Below, in pieces: positions 42,495 through 45,990 of a DNA stretch of 64,000 bases (the stretch's first letter is position 1; each line of letters opens with the position of its first letter). A model generated the notes under the pieces. The model was not told where the DNA came from. It worked only from the letters and a program-made list of their open reading frames with translations, and did no database searches. The position numbers and the translations under genes are program-made. Source of the DNA: Trichodelitschia bisporula (taxonomy: Eukaryota); contig ML996706.1 of the NCBI GenBank assembly GCA_010356995.1, forward strand, positions 124,001 through 188,000. Reading direction: 5' to 3'.

Positions 42495-43512
42495 TTATCC
42501 CGACATGACCGCATCCGCGCTAGGAAACGCAGACTTGATGTCGGCCTCGGGGAACTTGCTGAGGGCAGTCTCACTCATAGCCTCCACCATGACCGCTCTA
42601 GTGGCTACGGCAGCTGCTACAGCACTGTCGATCAGCTGTTCCGTAGCAGCTCCGGAGTCCCCTTTGAGCCATAGCTCCGTGATTTCGTCTCGAGAAGCCG
42701 AGTAGCCAACGACGCAGGCAGCCTGAATTTCTGGATGCTCGGGGGGGCTCGGATCTAATACTGTGATCGACTGCTGTGTCTGGTTGTCTTTGGAGTCCGG
42801 ACTCGGCAGTATGGCAGCCACACCTCCACATACCAAGTCCACACAATCGATGCCGGCGTCCACCAAGGCTGCGGAAGCCACGGTGATGCACCCGGCGAGC
42901 ACATTCATCATGCCCCAGCCGCCTACCACCCCGAGCCCCGTCGTGCCACCAGAGACCTCATCACCCCACCATCGGTCTTCCTCTCCTTCAAGGATAGTGA
43001 TGATGACGTCCACGCCACTTTTGGGCCACCGTTTGCCAATCACAATGCCTCGAAGTGCATTCTCCAGGTGCGCCCCAAGGTCTCTTTCCGTTGAATCCCG
43101 AATGTAGCCTCTGCGGTGCCTAGTTGCGAAGGGGGCGAACTTGACGTGAGTGCTAAGCACGAGTTGCGGGTTGTAAGGCGCCGAGCGTGGGAGTGGCTTT
43201 GGTCCGTGGACTGCACAGGAGATCTTGAGGGCGGAGGCGGGAGGAAGGACAGATTTCACAGGGAGATCATAAGTGGGCGACTGGAGCTCAAGGTAAGCCG
43301 AGCCAGAGGCTGGAGGTGTGACTCCAGTCTTGAGAACTAAGAGCGCATTAGCATGACATCGCATTCATCCAGATATCCGTACAAATTTTTCGGAGCTCTT
43401 CGGGGCGACGGTTTCGTGAAGGGCGTAGCTTCTCAAGATCAGAGGTATTTATGGCATAGCTCGGAGGAGCAGTGCCAGCCGGTCCATTTATGCGTCGTCT
43501 GTCGGCCATCAT
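42495..43512 (-). CDS. MTR3: Exosome complex component Mtr3 (RNase PH family)
   Basis: MADRRRINGP, LRKIFLKTGVTPPASGSAYLE, CAVHGPKPL, VKFAPFA, WPKSGVDVIITILE, CITVASAALVDAGIDCVD; one intron ~43382-43338. Confidence 0.9.
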
Positions 43513-43783
43513 GTTTGCTTTGCTAAGGTGAGAAAGTGCATTCATGATGTCGAAGGGGAGAAGCTTGCACGTGGTTGCCAAGCTGCCAGGAGCCTTGTGC
43601 AAGAGTCGGTCCGAGCGGGGCCAACCTTGGCTTTAAAACGACTTTTTCTGCACGCAACAAAACCTTCCGCTGCACAACCTCCGCCAAAGATGCGGATCGC
43701 ATGAAGCTCACAGTGATAGGAATTCCACCTTCCTCACTGCCGTGAAAATGTATGTCTACTCCTAACTCACATCCTCCCTTCCT

Positions 43784-43854
43784 ATGATGCAACTATACAC
43801 TACACGTTCTGGAGATTCCTCCGTGATCCATGAACCACATGCACTACCATCTGA
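43784..43854 (+). ncRNA. snR55: Box C/D snoRNA, snR55/U33-like (18S Um1269, yeast numbering)
   Basis: Box C variant ATGATGC, box D CTGA. Guide CATGCACTACCAT pairs with 18S GUGGUGGUGCAUG (two G-U pairs), and the D+5 rule lands on the U equivalent to Um1269. Confidence 0.82.
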
Positions 43855-44222
43855 GCTTTTCCCCCCCTCTCGCACTTTGCTATTGCTGAACGAAGCACAG
43901 CTGACTCCAAGCAGATTTGCAGCTACCGCGACAACTGCCGACTCGCCACCAGAAAATGTTGTATATATGGTGTTGGGTTGCAGTTGATGCCCTGGGGCAC
44001 CGTACCGGATAGCATGCTCCACGCTTGCTTCTCCCCGAAGACTCAAGACCTGCGAATGCTTGCGCCGAAGCATGGCGGTACCCCGGAGTCTTCGATCATG
44101 CTTTCAGAGAGCCTCGATGTACGACGTGCTCGATATTGTATGCTGACCTCAAAAAGCCGCACGATTGATAGCGATGCATGTAAGGTAAGACATGCCCTTT
44201 TCCTTTTATTGCACTCGCTTCG

Positions 44223-44295
44223 ATGATGATGGTATTTTTTCAGTTCTGCTACTGAATTCTCATGAAGATACTCCTACCAAGCTTACCTTGTCTGA
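44223..44295 (+). ncRNA. snR61: Box C/D snoRNA, snR61/U38-like (25S Am1133, yeast numbering)
   Basis: C ATGATGA, D' CTGA (44252), C' ATGAAGA (44262), D CTGA (44292). The D' guide CAGTTCTGCT is complementary to LSU AGCAGAACUG. Confidence 0.88.
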
Positions 44296-44438
44296 ACGAA
44301 GCTCTTAATCATTTTTGAATTATTTTCACCGGGGGATCCAAAGCTAACTCGCTTCCCAGATTGTGTTTAGCTCTTCACGTATCGACGGCACCCTAACTCC
44401 TGAGGTAAACTCCCTCAAATTTTTCTTTCATCCCTTCG

Positions 44439-44664
44439 ATGATGAATCCTAGTCTATCCATTCCATGATCATCTCTGCCGGGGCCTTCTTCCTATACCGG
44501 ACTAGCATTTGCTGGGATGAACGGTTGTGGAGTTGTAGGGAACTGTGGTCTCTGACCCCTTCTCTGCGTAATTGTGCCCCCCGTTGCTGTGTGTCAGAGT
44601 AGGACGTTTTGTTCTCCTCGGGCACATGGCCGGCAGCGGGACGTGACTAAAAACGGCTTTCTGA
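44439..44664 (+). ncRNA. Candidate large structured box C/D RNA, family unassigned
   Basis: Box C ATGATGA at the same relative intron position as its two neighbours, terminal CTGA at 44661, internal hairpins, and an 11/12 complement to 18S helix 34 before the D box. Confidence 0.6.
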
Positions 44665-45990
44665 TCCCAATTCAGCTCAGCATATTGAGAACTTGTTTGC
44701 GGTGAACATTGGCTAATGTTCTACAGAATTACGACACCTGTATGCGAGTGGAGCCAAGCCAAGCCCTCGAATAATTTGGATTTTATGGACAGGTCAACCT
44801 CTAACTTCCACGGCGCCAGAGTTGCACATCAGCAAAAATTGCTTGCCAATTCCAAGTTTCGTGCATCTGTTGCTTGTTAAAATCTCTCATCGGGTGAAAC
44901 GGTTTCTACGGTAGGTTCGAGGACATCACGTGGTGATTGAATGAATTGAAGATATTCTCAAACGCTCTCGGCTATGGTGACGGCACGCGTGATGTCTGCA
45001 ATCGAGATTGATGAGCCCTTTGCTTCTCAAATGGAGCACAATATCTGCATGGCGGTGCTGTGATGGCTGAATGCAGCGCTTGGATTGGTCGAGACGAAAG
45101 GCCGGGTCGGCGATGTGCCACAATGCTACAGAGGAATTCCTTAGTATCGCAGTGCATGTCTGGAAGTCACACTACTCCGTCTTCAACAGTAAATTGCACG
45201 AAGCCAAGGCAAAAACTGCAGTTTGCTAATTCTACTGTACGTGCATTCAAAGTTGTCCCTTGCTCCCTTCACGAGTCTCATCATCGAGGATTGCAAGGCA
45301 CAGAGTATCATGGGTCCCTTGGGTGATGCGGCTCCTACCGGTAGTGGCGTGGCGTCCATGGTACCCTGGCTATCTGATCTCAGTCCACACAGCCCCCCGA
45401 GGACAGGAGAGCGTTTTCAGGCGATAAATGCGCCATTTGAGGATAAACACAGAGCAGTTGGCGAAACTACGGATGTAGATGATTGTCAATCGCACCAATA
45501 CAGTTCATTTGTATAACCGGCTTTCCGTTCTTCGCAAAGCGCGAGAGACTGGGCATACGCAGAGGAGTTTGTGGGGGTAGTTTCTAGTTAATTATTCCTA
45601 GCGGCGGATCTTACGGTACGGTGGCTGCGTTTGCAAGGCGCTTCTCCTCGCGCTAAACTGTTTACGGTCCAAGCCCCCAGGTCCGTCACGGGAAAGGCGT
45701 TTCAACTCTGCCACTTCCCCATCCAAGCACCCCAAGTTGCCAGGTCGCGGTGGCATAATAACGACACATATCTTTCACTCACGCGCACGCACTTCGTCGA
45801 TAATTGCCTGATTACCCCACAAAGCCTTCTGTCTCAATCGAATCTACTCCAATCGTCGTCGTCTCAGAGTGCTATCCTGCTGGGCCTGCCGGGTGGAGAC
45901 GCGGCCTGGTGAGGTCAGCTCAGGAGTTCACGGCGACGTTTGCAGTTGAGCTGAATGCTTCCACTTCATGCGCCCTCGCCGCGCGCAAAG

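Follow-up and report, generated by a model that had tools for sequence, protein, structure and literature searches.

Sequence features place a large intronic box C/D snoRNA of Trichodelitschia bisporula in the orphan fungal family CD53 and predict a SNORD17-like target at LSU U2314

In the 64,000-nt stretch of Trichodelitschia bisporula contig ML996706.1 analysed here (hereafter the window), a non-coding host gene carries relatives of the rRNA methylation guides snR55 and snR61 in its first two introns, and its long third intron raises the question of what RNA it encodes and which ribosomal RNA that RNA addresses. The initial annotation, made from the letters of the DNA, had proposed an unassigned and possibly undescribed box C/D RNA with a guide lying across the acetylation site of 18S helix 34 (h34). 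The relevant units of the host gene are as follows.

43784..43854, plus strand: snR55/SNORD33-like box C/D snoRNA in host intron 1 (Rfam RF00133)
44218..44298, plus strand: snR61 box C/D snoRNA in host intron 2 (RF00476)
44405..44726, plus strand: host intron 3, 322 nt, GT..AG

Splicing of the host is demonstrated by contigs that carry spliced joints. The joint 44404|44727, which bears out the 322-nt length first given for intron 3, is seen in contigs of runs X3 and X4 (presumed RNA) and not in the DNA run X1, and the joint of intron 2 (44184|44360, removing 175 nt at 44185-44359) is likewise found in X3 and X4. Unspliced contigs also occur, spanning 44405-44754 in X3 and 44405-44657 in X4, with introns 1 and 2 themselves outside the cover of the X3 and X4 contigs. 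The proposed co-hosting with snR55 and snR61 is upheld by Rfam: RF00476 matches at 56.4 bits, over its gathering score of 45, and is the sole match when the full 64-kb window is searched at gathering thresholds, and RF00133 matches at 27.8 bits (E 0.027), under its gathering score of 44. The snR55-like guide ahead of CTGA 43851-43854 places its D+5 position opposite 18S U1269, and Um1269 is the snR55 target in the yeast rRNA modification table. The element in intron 3 is the third snoRNA of this snR55-snR61 host gene.

Rfam searches of 43400-45000 and 44425-44675 at E<=10 return no family for the intron 3 element, the matches at this threshold being noise (mir-4659 on a hairpin; GlsR14, sR5 and sR1 on box C). 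The description of the RNA as unassigned thus stands for Rfam but not in print, where the family is known as Neurospora crassa CD53 (Nc CD53) or CD_53. Nc CD53 is a 212-nt orphan recovered by cDNA cloning and northern blot (GenBank EU780977) and located on chromosome IV, as are the snR55 and snR61 homologues (Liu et al., 2009; PMC2780460). It is assigned by Canzler et al. (2018; PMC5824354) to the snoStrip family CD_53, which is described there as the sole fungal C/D family having 200-300-nt members. By eye, Nc CD53 and the window share box C followed by AGUCUAUCCAUUC and A(C/U)GA, then GUUGUGG, GGCCGGC, and a terminal block of UGA, an A-rich run, ACGGCUU and CUGAUC. On these resemblances the intron 3 RNA is a local member of the published orphan family and not an undescribed RNA, so that what had been put forward as a possible undescribed acetylation guide belongs to a snoRNA family cloned in 2009.

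Homologues were sought by synteny, scanning metagenome contigs with the snR61 guide and leaving the intron 3 element itself unused. Among the 56 loci obtained, 31 have a box C upstream of the snR61-guide match, and 24 of these 31 fungal loci carry a CD53 homologue 170-282 nt downstream of snR61, with the snR55 guide also upstream in 20 of the 24. An nhmmer profile of the homologues, which includes locus L034 (by eye closely like Nc CD53), gives a single match in the window, at 44426-44672, with an E-value of 2.3e-47 that is partly by construction, as the window is itself a row of the alignment A1. At about 226-231 nt, the window RNA falls in the size class of Nc CD53 (212 nt) and of the CD_53 family (200-300 nt). 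CD53 is classed as intergenic by Liu et al., whereas it is intronic both here and in the Neurospora-like locus L034, within the snR55-snR61 host; in many fungi CD53 is the third intronic snoRNA of this host gene. The window copy itself is a long branch, with at most 59% identity to any metagenome homologue, and differs from Nc CD53 in having its own variable hairpin and an element before box D that is much more complementary to h34.

The initial identification of the intron 3 element as a large box C/D snoRNA encoded in an intron holds, as judged by its boxes and by the stem joining the D' and C' regions. Its parts come in the usual succession C, guide, D', stem, C', guide, D, a large structured insert separating D' from C', and are listed below (14 long homologues, the window copy among them, could be aligned; three short forms bring the set to 17).

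44436..44666, plus strand: predicted mature CD53-family snoRNA, about 231 nt, ends placed by analogy with cloned N. crassa CD53
44439..44445, plus strand: box C AUGAUGA, 34 nt past the donor
44451..44464, plus strand: D' antisense element AGUCUAUCCAUUCC, invariant core AUCCAUUC at 44456-44463
44465..44468, plus strand: box D' AUGA, A[U/C]GA in 17/17 homologues
44475..44481, plus strand: helix P1 5' strand CUGCCGG, pairing with 44630-44636
44489..44532, plus strand: conserved internal domain with helices B and C, GGGAUGA at 44514-44520 and GGUUGUGGAG at 44523-44532
44533..44579, plus strand: variable insert, holding an internal CTGA (44552-44555) and a hairpin specific to the lineage
44586..44630, plus strand: helix D with conserved apical C-G pair and loop CGUNUUG (loop 44606-44610)
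44630..44636, plus strand: helix P1 3' strand CCGGCAG, containing the family-invariant GCCG
44643..44647, plus strand: box C' remnant GUGAC, UGA conserved
44646..44660, plus strand: D antisense element ACUAAAAACGGCUUU (the h34 element), first 1-2 letters overlapping box C'
44661..44664, plus strand: box D CUGA, invariant in 14/14 aligned homologues and the three short forms

The mature ends in T. bisporula are inferred from the N. crassa CD53 cDNA, which begins 3 nt ahead of AUGAUGA and extends 2 nt past CUGA (PMC2780460, supplementary file 1). Both outer boxes named at the outset, ATGATGA some 34 nt past the donor and the terminal CTGA at 44661, are present in the sequence, and the choice of the latter as the true box D is confirmed by its invariance in 14/14, the earlier CTGA at 44552 falling in the variable insert, for which no alignment between homologues is possible (A1 columns ~155-196). 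In box C the GA is invariant in 14/14 aligned homologues, with a degenerate AGGAGGA in three lineages; columns 42, 44 and 45 of A1, in box D', are invariant; and the C' remnant appears as UGA or GGA 12-15 nt ahead of box D in 17/17. From box C to box D the RNA measures 226 nt in the window and 206-252 nt in the 13 other long forms, and 138-139 nt in the short forms L006, L013 and L045, which fall outside the published size range; taken together, family members run from about 140 to 250 nt.

Covariation across syntenic homologues, one of the checks proposed at the outset, was examined on alignment A1 (14 homologues) with helices from RNAalifold. Paired cells amount to 89.4% (shuffles, 75.4%), both sides are changed in 22 of the 34 pairs, none of 500 shuffles reaches the observed pairing values, and slid controls give 33-48%; the helices of the CD53 homologues covary. 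Helices B and C (columns 83-95/141-151 and 98-101/131-134) have 95% and 98% of cells paired, with both-side changes in 5/10 and 3/4 pairs, and helix D (columns 216-261) shows such changes in 12/15 pairs around an invariant C235:G241. Helix P1, in which the stretch after D' pairs with that before C', was read from per-sequence duplexes; by eye and apart from any alignment count, its pairing is kept while its letters change (CUGCCGG/CCGGCAG, ACAGGCC/GGCCUGU, GAGUCG/CGACUC). The two hairpins noted initially both appear in the minimum-free-energy fold, and since 44630-44636 may also pair within the hairpin 44580-44589/44631-44640, two folds compete. The fold energy of the whole RNA is ordinary (z = -1.28; 23 of 200 shuffles fold equally well). 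Two further ideas on these parts were set aside: a masking of the D element by the apical loop of helix D, for which the duplexes (-2.9 to -8.8 kcal/mol) have no common register, and a role of the invariant GGCCGG as a sense mimic of 18S GGCCG, which helix P1 explains instead.

A single antisense element is invariant across the family, and it lies directly after box C. The core AUCCAUUC is invariant in 17/17 homologues, its register to box D' is fixed in all 17, and an uninterrupted run of 8-10 Watson-Crick pairs joins the D' element to LSU 2310/2311-2318, a duplex better than shuffles in every homologue (p<=0.024). The D'+5 position (44460) stands opposite LSU U2314 in yeast numbering, the U of GAAUGG; the numbering was anchored on 12/12 known modified LSU nucleotides, on an LSU proxy sequence that is eukaryotic contamination within prokaryote assemblies, and a scan of viral contigs for the LSU motif gave 0 matches. 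An imperfect 18S complement just after box C had been noted initially, and here the conserved fit is to LSU rRNA instead: the 18S complementarity is strong in the window only (-20.2 kcal/mol) and ranges from -5.6 to -12.3 kcal/mol in the other 16 homologues.

In the mechanism proposed here, the D' antisense element would pair with LSU rRNA around GAAUGGAU, setting D'+5 on U2314, and from this register a Nop1/fibrillarin snoRNP would be expected to 2'-O-methylate the U2314 equivalent, a modification inferred from the pairing. The conserved job of CD53 would then fall to the antisense element that directly follows box C, and the h34-complementary element before box D would represent a lineage-restricted second guide or accessory pairing and not a family function. 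We consider it probable, if well short of certain, that the RNA is a CD53 member whose D' element guides U2314 2'-O-methylation in the manner of SNORD17, of which it is perhaps the fungal counterpart. The register coincides with the best target published for CD_53, 25S-3500, which is the same nucleotide and is given by Canzler et al. as the alignment position of the snR86 pseudouridine site, in a prediction they call not unambiguous (ICI 0.71; PMC5824354). CD53 is an orphan in both papers that treat it, and the D' element now offers a concrete, if predicted, target. As side observations that weigh against a U2314 guide, the contiguous duplex is short (8-10 bp) and box D' is non-canonical (AUGA or ACGA).

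The same uridine is addressed by snR86 and Nc_HACA_7, H/ACA guides for pseudouridine 2314, which differ from CD53 in snoRNA class and in chemistry. For S. cerevisiae and S. pombe, U2314 is listed as a pseudouridine and nothing more, a further point against a U2314 methylation guide; CD53 together with snR86 or Nc_HACA_7 could nevertheless yield a methylated pseudouridine (psi-m), as in human 28S. A testable prediction is that filamentous fungi, and not the two model yeasts, carry Um or psi-m at the position equivalent to U2314 (about U2276 in N. crassa, by numbering offset); a literature search found no published methylation maps of filamentous fungi.

The RNA also resembles vertebrate SNORD17. 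Yeast U2314 corresponds to human 28S U3797, where psi-m3797 is given as a validated site and for which SNORD17 is listed as the guide in the corresponding table row; sharing this nucleotide by the +5 rule would make CD53 work like SNORD17. Both are large C/D snoRNAs, and in both an antisense block follows right after box C and is succeeded by box D'. The Rfam SNORD17 model (RF00567, 238 positions) has a consensus of box C, ucc and AGuuuAUCCauuCgCuG, and of the 13 antisense letters, 12 are the same as in AGUCUAUCCAUUC of the window, in the same place; read on through box D', the consensus is AGuuuAUCCauuC-g-CuG(A) and the window AGUCUAUCCAUUC-C-AUGA. The host genes differ, however, and the 3' part of the SNORD17 consensus (GAGUGGUGGAAAU ahead of CUGA) is unlike the A-rich-CGGC element of CD53. 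RF00567 finds no match in the window (at E<=10), L003 or L013 and reaches 13.3 bits (E 0.32; gathering score 45) in L034, one of four homologue regions searched; since these scores are low, the case for homology to SNORD17 is built on some 25 nt together with size and target. From the shared letters and register, CD53 may be the fungal counterpart of SNORD17, which would date SNORD17 to well before the vertebrates. In the literature searched, no paper joining SNORD17 and Neurospora was found, and the supplements of Canzler et al. may hold more on targets. A likeness of the 3' end to snoZ40 (21 bits on L034 and 13.3 on L003, against a gathering score of 50) was treated as chance.

The element before box D remains the feature on which the initial reading was built, and in the window its complementarity is real. 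Checked on the 18S fragment L057, ACTAAAAACGGC (44646-44657) pairs at 11 of 12 positions with 18S 1278-1289, exactly as first described, with the mismatch opposite C1284 and D+5 opposite C1279. With G-U counted, 15/17 positions at the D antisense element ACUAAAAACGGCUUU pair with 18S 1275-1291, in two runs of 7 pairs separated by one mismatch. At -16.3 kcal/mol, the 11/12 duplex is stronger than those formed by 1000 shuffles that keep the composition of the 16 nt ahead of box D (-8.1 +/- 2.2 kcal/mol; p = 0.005). The 12-mer is unique within the window by pattern search, which says nothing on complementarity. The complementarity is strong in the window but falters across the family, where only 5/17 homologues do better than composition-matched shuffles. 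The same letters recur in L009 and L025, the element is partly kept in L026, L044, L006, L013 and L045 and degenerate in 9/17, and nothing beyond a YGGY core is invariant. Nine homologues have a 3-nt spacer to box D, seven a 4-nt and one a 2-nt spacer, so that D+5 moves among 1278, 1279 and 1280. Complementarity to h34 is not, then, a trait of the whole family.

Within the window lineage, the element could still make the RNA a double guide, pairing with 18S 1277-1291 and methylating C1279 beside ac4C1280, a lineage-specific role that the pairing makes conceivable and that we hold to be rather unlikely. In its favour stand the 11/12 Watson-Crick pairs with flanking G-U pairs and D+5 on C1279, the energy of the duplex relative to shuffles, a C'-to-D spacing of ~14 nt that suits a normal guide, and the 20-nt GACUAAAAACGGCUUUCUGA, letter-identical in the window, L009 and L025 at a whole-RNA identity to the window of just 58-59%; the distant short forms L006 and L013 likewise do better than shuffles. 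Against these are the 12/17 homologues in which the element is no better than shuffles, the five changes in L026, a close relative of L009 and L025, the register shift across 1278, 1279 and 1280 with only YGGY invariant, a mismatch at D+10 and the overlap of the first letters with box C', and a methyl at 1279 is absent among the 18S rows viewed in the yeast modification table. That the window lineage gained or kept a working second antisense element across 18S 1277-1291, over the Kre33 target C1280, is likewise an improbable reading of the complementarity; if true, the element would methylate C1279 or else time the opening of helix 34 to acetylation, and a single snoRNP would contact an LSU site as well as the acetylation site of the SSU. 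The other proposal, that CD53-type RNAs are the filamentous-fungal stand-in for snR4 and aid Kre33 acetylation of C1280 in helix 34, is very unlikely. Like snR4, the window RNA is a large, atypical box C/D RNA, and in the window its complementarity falls where it should, on the 5' strand of 18S helix 34. Yeast snR4 differs in being independently transcribed. A CCACC-like stretch able to pair with 18S 1263-1269 occurs in several homologues, and in the literature consulted no SNORD13/snR45 counterpart was found in fungi beyond budding yeasts, so that little is known of how filamentous fungi guide acetylation. However, snR4 uses two elements that leave C1280 unpaired in a bulge, a 5'-terminal AACUA on 1286-1290 and the loop UCACCACC on 1264-1271, whereas a single element here covers both C1279 and C1280; no second conserved element was found, and the two-element design of snR4 is lacking. 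The CCACC-like stretch is missing from the window (GGCCUUCUUCC), varies by lineage and runs with its 3' end (CUCC) into the covarying helix B; the invariant GCCGG is accounted for by helix P1; and, according to Canzler et al. (PMC5824354), several Pezizomycotina have an snR4 family of their own. The AACUA of Saccharomycotina snR4 (Sharma S3 figure) is missing here and, apart from a C'-like GAUG...UGGA stretch, that figure shows no common blocks; with no sequence likeness to the window RNA, homology to snR4 was rejected. Given 5/17 against shuffles, a shifting register and C1280 covered instead of flanked, an snR4-like acetylation guide is not supported.

Two readings dispense with modification by this RNA altogether. 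As a chaperone, it would merely hold pre-rRNA segments through its antisense element or elements, its internal domain recruiting extra proteins, an unlikely role for which helices B, C and D, the GGGAUGA motif and the apical loop nevertheless speak, being covarying or conserved and having no role in a plain guide. U2314 is, moreover, only pseudouridine in yeasts, and snR190 and ASE2 of S. pombe snR107 are described as acting without methylation (PMC11971394). Against a chaperone, the short forms L006, L013 and L045 are without most of the internal domain but retain the boxes and the two guide regions, so the insert is dispensable in some lineages; the exact D' register in 17/17 is a requirement of methylation guides and not of chaperones; and the counterpart site in human is given as methylated. 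The snR107 RNA itself, described as a relative of snR190/SNORD12 (PMC11971394), is unrelated to CD53. Scarcely credible is a reading in which intron 3 yields no stable RNA and is simply a long, partly retained intron with chance boxes. It draws on RNA evidence that consists of contigs, which cannot show ends, on an unspliced contig that runs from the intron into exon 4, and on the terminal stem around boxes C and D, of which no obvious form is seen. The preferred reading, a CD53-family guide, agrees instead with boxes, guide and helices kept across 17 distinct sequences with compensatory changes, and with a Neurospora homologue that was cloned and seen on a northern blot.

The large box C/D snoRNA in the third intron of the host gene belongs to an already known RNA family, Nc CD53 (CD_53), and the best-supported mechanism here is a predicted one, in which a SNORD17-like D' guide would direct 2'-O-methylation of the LSU uridine that corresponds to yeast U2314. 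The host is a multi-exon gene without a long ORF on the plus strand (~43700-44964), with the following features.

Intron 1, ~43750-43915, plus strand, GT..AG, read by eye, joint not seen
snR55/SNORD33-like RNA, plus strand, in putative intron 1, Rfam 27.8 bits (below the gathering score)
Intron 2, 175 nt, plus strand, joint 44184/44360 in X3 and X4 contigs
snR61, plus strand, in intron 2, Rfam RF00476, 56.4 bits
Intron 3, 44405-44726, 322 nt, plus strand, GT..AG, joint 44404/44727 in X3 and X4 contigs
Box C ATGATGA, 44439-44445, plus strand, 34 nt after the intron-3 donor
Internal CTGA, 44552-44555, plus strand, in a segment not alignable between lineages
Terminal CTGA (box D), 44661-44664, plus strand, 62 nt before the intron-3 acceptor

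Contigs from two runs guessed to be RNA (X3, X4) carry both joints, and the contig from the DNA run X1 follows the window colinearly, so that introns 2 and 3 are real and expression of the host gene is shown. The initial annotation was accurate in its letters, including the 322-nt intron, the box C 34 nt past the donor and the terminal CTGA at 44661.

Rfam gave no family match to the element, even at E<=10, yet comparison by eye places it in a published family, so that the RNA is not undescribed, as had been supposed. Among fungal box C/D families, Canzler et al. (2018; PMC5824354) give members of 200-300 nt for Nc_CD_53 alone and assign it no unambiguous target; the best prediction they offer, 25S-3500, 'loosely found in several Pezizomycotina', is an alignment position that is also the snR86/Nc_HACA_7 pseudouridylation site. 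Liu et al. (2009; PMC2780460) describe Nc CD53 as a 212-nt orphan on chromosome IV, supported by cDNA library and northern blot and classed as 'IR' (intergenic), with Nc CD34 (snR55) and Nc CD38 (snR61) likewise on chromosome IV. Set by eye against A1, an alignment of 14 long-form homologues including the window, Nc CD53 (PMC2780460, supplementary file 1) has in common, in the same order, box C, AGUCUAUCCAUUC, ACGA, GUUGUGG, GGCCGGC, and UGA followed by an A-rich stretch and ACGGCUUGUCUGAUC, and is closest to the metagenome loci L034 and L023. Within the family, the window element is divergent: it sits on a long branch and has <=59% identity to any metagenome homologue.

Relatives were sought without the element itself, by scanning metagenome contigs for the snR61 D' guide, with 19 bases specified, and keeping 1600 nt on either side of each match. 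The scan gave 56 loci, 31 of them true snR61 genes (RTGATGA <=35 nt upstream of the match); a homologue lies 170-282 nt downstream in 24 of the 31, with the snR55 guide upstream in 20 of these 24. An nhmmer profile found 23 homologues, including L013, L045 and the truncated L023, all three outside the profile, and the one at L006 was found by motif. At the inspected loci L013 and L034 the element is again preceded by a GT donor and followed by a branch-site/AG acceptor. Distinct sequences number 17 with the window, or ~13 lineages when near-identical ones are merged. The nhmmer search of the window returned one copy (44426-44672, E 2.3e-47), a match partly by construction given that A1 includes the window, and no second copy. 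Seven snR61 loci are without a homologue: two are cut too short to tell (L027, L051), three have no element downstream of snR61 (L004, L043, L054), and L008 and L019 show only a doubtful AUCCAUUU stretch. This stretch, ~140 nt past snR61, has CACUAUCCAUUUCAUUG where the AUCCAUUC block is usual and no clear box D; it is not detected by the nhmmer profile and possibly represents a CD53 copy that has decayed or diverged strongly.

Three homologues are short forms, 138-139 nt from box C to box D, which retain the boxes and both guide regions and have lost most of the internal domain.

L006, 1299-1463, minus strand, short form
L013, 1308-1473, minus strand, short form
L045, 1318-1482, minus strand, short form

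They are placed in compact snR55-snR61-X clusters adjoining a protein gene, and the taxon they come from may fall beyond the group in which CD_53 has been described.

Taken from A1 and the short forms, the box C/D plan is ordinary but carries a large insert: box C; 4-5 nt; AG(U/C)(C/U)(U/A)AUCCAUUC; one variable base; D' = A(U/C)GA; helix P1; a structured domain; the P1 return strand; a UGA remnant of C'; 12-15 nt; and box D. The terminal CTGA is box D, because the CTGA at 44552 and its hairpin sit in the non-alignable segment, and a 3' end at that earlier CTGA is not upheld. RNAalifold predicts 34 pairs on A1, with both-side changes at 22; paired cells reach 89.4% against 75.4% in shuffles, the observed pairing values are matched by 0/500 shuffles, and pairing falls to 33-48% once the 3' partners are displaced by 1-3 columns. 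Helix P1, which joins the post-D' stretch to the pre-C' stretch, was left unaligned by MAFFT and is visible in per-sequence duplexes whose letters vary by lineage; it explains the invariant GCCGG (44629-44633). In the window, one hairpin of the initial annotation (44580-44589/44631-44640) is in competition with P1 (44475-44481 with 44630-44636), and the other hairpin lies in the segment non-alignable between lineages.

Several further features accompany this fold. The apical loop of helix D (C-CGUNUUG-G; window 44606-44610, A1 columns 234-242) is kept in the 14 long forms above a freely varying stem; no partner for it was found, and its pairing with the D element is weak. An internal GGGAUGA(U) motif (window 44514-44532), conserved, adjoining the covarying helices B and C and missing from the short forms, looks like an additional box C'-type or K-turn-type site. 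In three lineages (L009, L025, L026) box C is AGGAGGA, not RUGAUGA, a degenerate form that keeps both GA dinucleotides and is unusual for a conserved snoRNA.

The block AUCCAUUC (44456-44463) is invariant in 17/17 homologues. Its target was read on an LSU proxy, eukaryotic rRNA contaminating prokaryote assemblies (18 loci, identical from GACGCGCAUG through the scanned motif), where taking the U of GAAUGG as U2314 agrees with 12/12 modified LSU nucleotides of the yeast table. In the D'-fixed register, all homologues pair with LSU 2310/2311-2318 through an unbroken run of 8-10 Watson-Crick pairs, and scattered pairs follow further on; D'+5 is opposite U2314 in all 17, and the duplex beats shuffles in 17/17 (p<=0.024). 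This nucleotide is the same as the 25S-3500 of Canzler et al. (PMC5824354). It is pseudouridylated by snR86 in S. cerevisiae (psi2314, yeast modification table), with psi at U2402 tabled as the S. pombe equivalent; for human 28S, psi-m3797 appears in a validated list, and SNORD17 is tabled with target 28S U3797.

The Rfam SNORD17 model (238 positions) matches L034 weakly (13.3 bits, E 0.32), and the consensus seen in that match, box C + ucc + AGuuuAUCCauuC + g + CuG(A), carries, at the corresponding position, the block seen in the window as AAUCCU + AGUCUAUCCAUUC + C + AUGA, and the +5 rule leads to the same U. On account of this shared block, place and uridine, CD53 is predicted to work like SNORD17. 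The model has no match on the window, L003 or L013, and the 3' guide regions of the two RNAs differ; CD53 may or may not be the orthologue of SNORD17, the likeness lying in the D' guide block and its target. A literature search, itself thin evidence, found no publication treating SNORD17 together with Neurospora, and the link may be unpublished. Additionally, window 44440-44471 weakly matches (11.4 bits, E 2.5) the 3' guide of the Giardia snoRNA GlsR14 (UGAUGAUUCCU..CUGUCCAUUCCCCUGA), a sequence likeness that hints at possible guides for the U2314-equivalent LSU site far outside fungi and vertebrates.

The initial annotation had placed the guide before box D, against 18S helix 34 (h34). On an 18S fragment (L057, SSU rRNA per Rfam) standing in for the 5' strand of h34, which is universally conserved, taking the second C of GGCCG as C1280 fits 4/4 tabled yeast modified nucleotides (Um1269, Gm1271, ac4C1280, psi1290). 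There, ACUAAAAACGGC (44646-44657) pairs with 18S 1278-1289 at 11/12 positions, with a mismatch opposite C1284 and G-U pairs lengthening both sides, and D+5 is opposite C1279, as had been claimed. The duplex reaches -16.3 kcal/mol, whereas 1000 shuffles of these 16 nt give -8.1 +/- 2.2 (p = 0.005), and, as a rough inference, a given 12-mer would match with <=1 mismatch somewhere in ~5,400 nt of rRNA ~1% of the time; the complement is therefore real and not trivially chance. Across the family, the h34 element beats composition-matched shuffles in 5/17 only (window, L009, L025, L006, L013). Anchored on the invariant YGGY opposite G1278-G1281, where changes are C to U only and retain pairing with G, the longest pair run (G-U included) is 7-8 in eight sequences (the same five, L026, L044 and L045) and 4-5 in the other nine. 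Spacers to box D of 3 nt (nine sequences), 4 nt (seven) and 2 nt (one) put D+5 on C1279, G1278 or C1280. Pointing the other way, together with the YGGY changes that retain pairing, is a 20-nt stretch, GACUAAAAACGGCUUUCUGA, identical in the window, L009 and L025, the latter two having 58-59% overall identity to the window. We read the h34 element, from these comparisons, as a second antisense element that is probably restricted by lineage and builds on a short conserved core, and not as the family's conserved function; a lineage-specific second target at 18S C1279 is possible. A further complementarity to 18S, of the stretch just after box C, holds in the window (-20.2 kcal/mol) but drops to -5.6 to -12.3 kcal/mol in the remaining 16 homologues; against LSU, this stretch pairs at -12.0 to -18.8 kcal/mol in all 17.

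An acetylation-related role had also been proposed. As described by Sharma et al. and in the Sni445 paper, snR4 uses two elements, pairing 1286-1290 and 1264-1271, and leaves C1280 in an unpaired bulge, whereas the window RNA has a single element that pairs with C1280 itself. The Saccharomycotina snR4 sequences in the S3 figure of Sharma et al. all start AACUAU and have a UCACCACC-type loop, both absent from the window RNA. An snR4-type acetylation guide thus fails the only structural test available, two flanking elements with C1280 unpaired, and of the initial interpretation there stand a real, large, co-hosted C/D snoRNA and a statistically unusual h34 complement.

Unspliced contigs spanning 44405-44754 and 44405-44657 are also present, and contigs cannot show RNA ends. 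One X4 contig (record 6) joins window 44165-44179, the last 15 letters before 44180, directly to 44405, which fits an alternative GT(44180)..AG(44404) splice with exon 3 skipped and intron 3 kept; alternative splicing in Neurospora snoRNA host genes is reported by Liu et al. (PMC2780460). On the minus strand at 42495-43513, divergently transcribed from the host gene, an RNase PH domain (PF01138, E 9e-16) marks a gene that likely encodes an exosome subunit, and the upstream region common to both genes is only ~200 nt.
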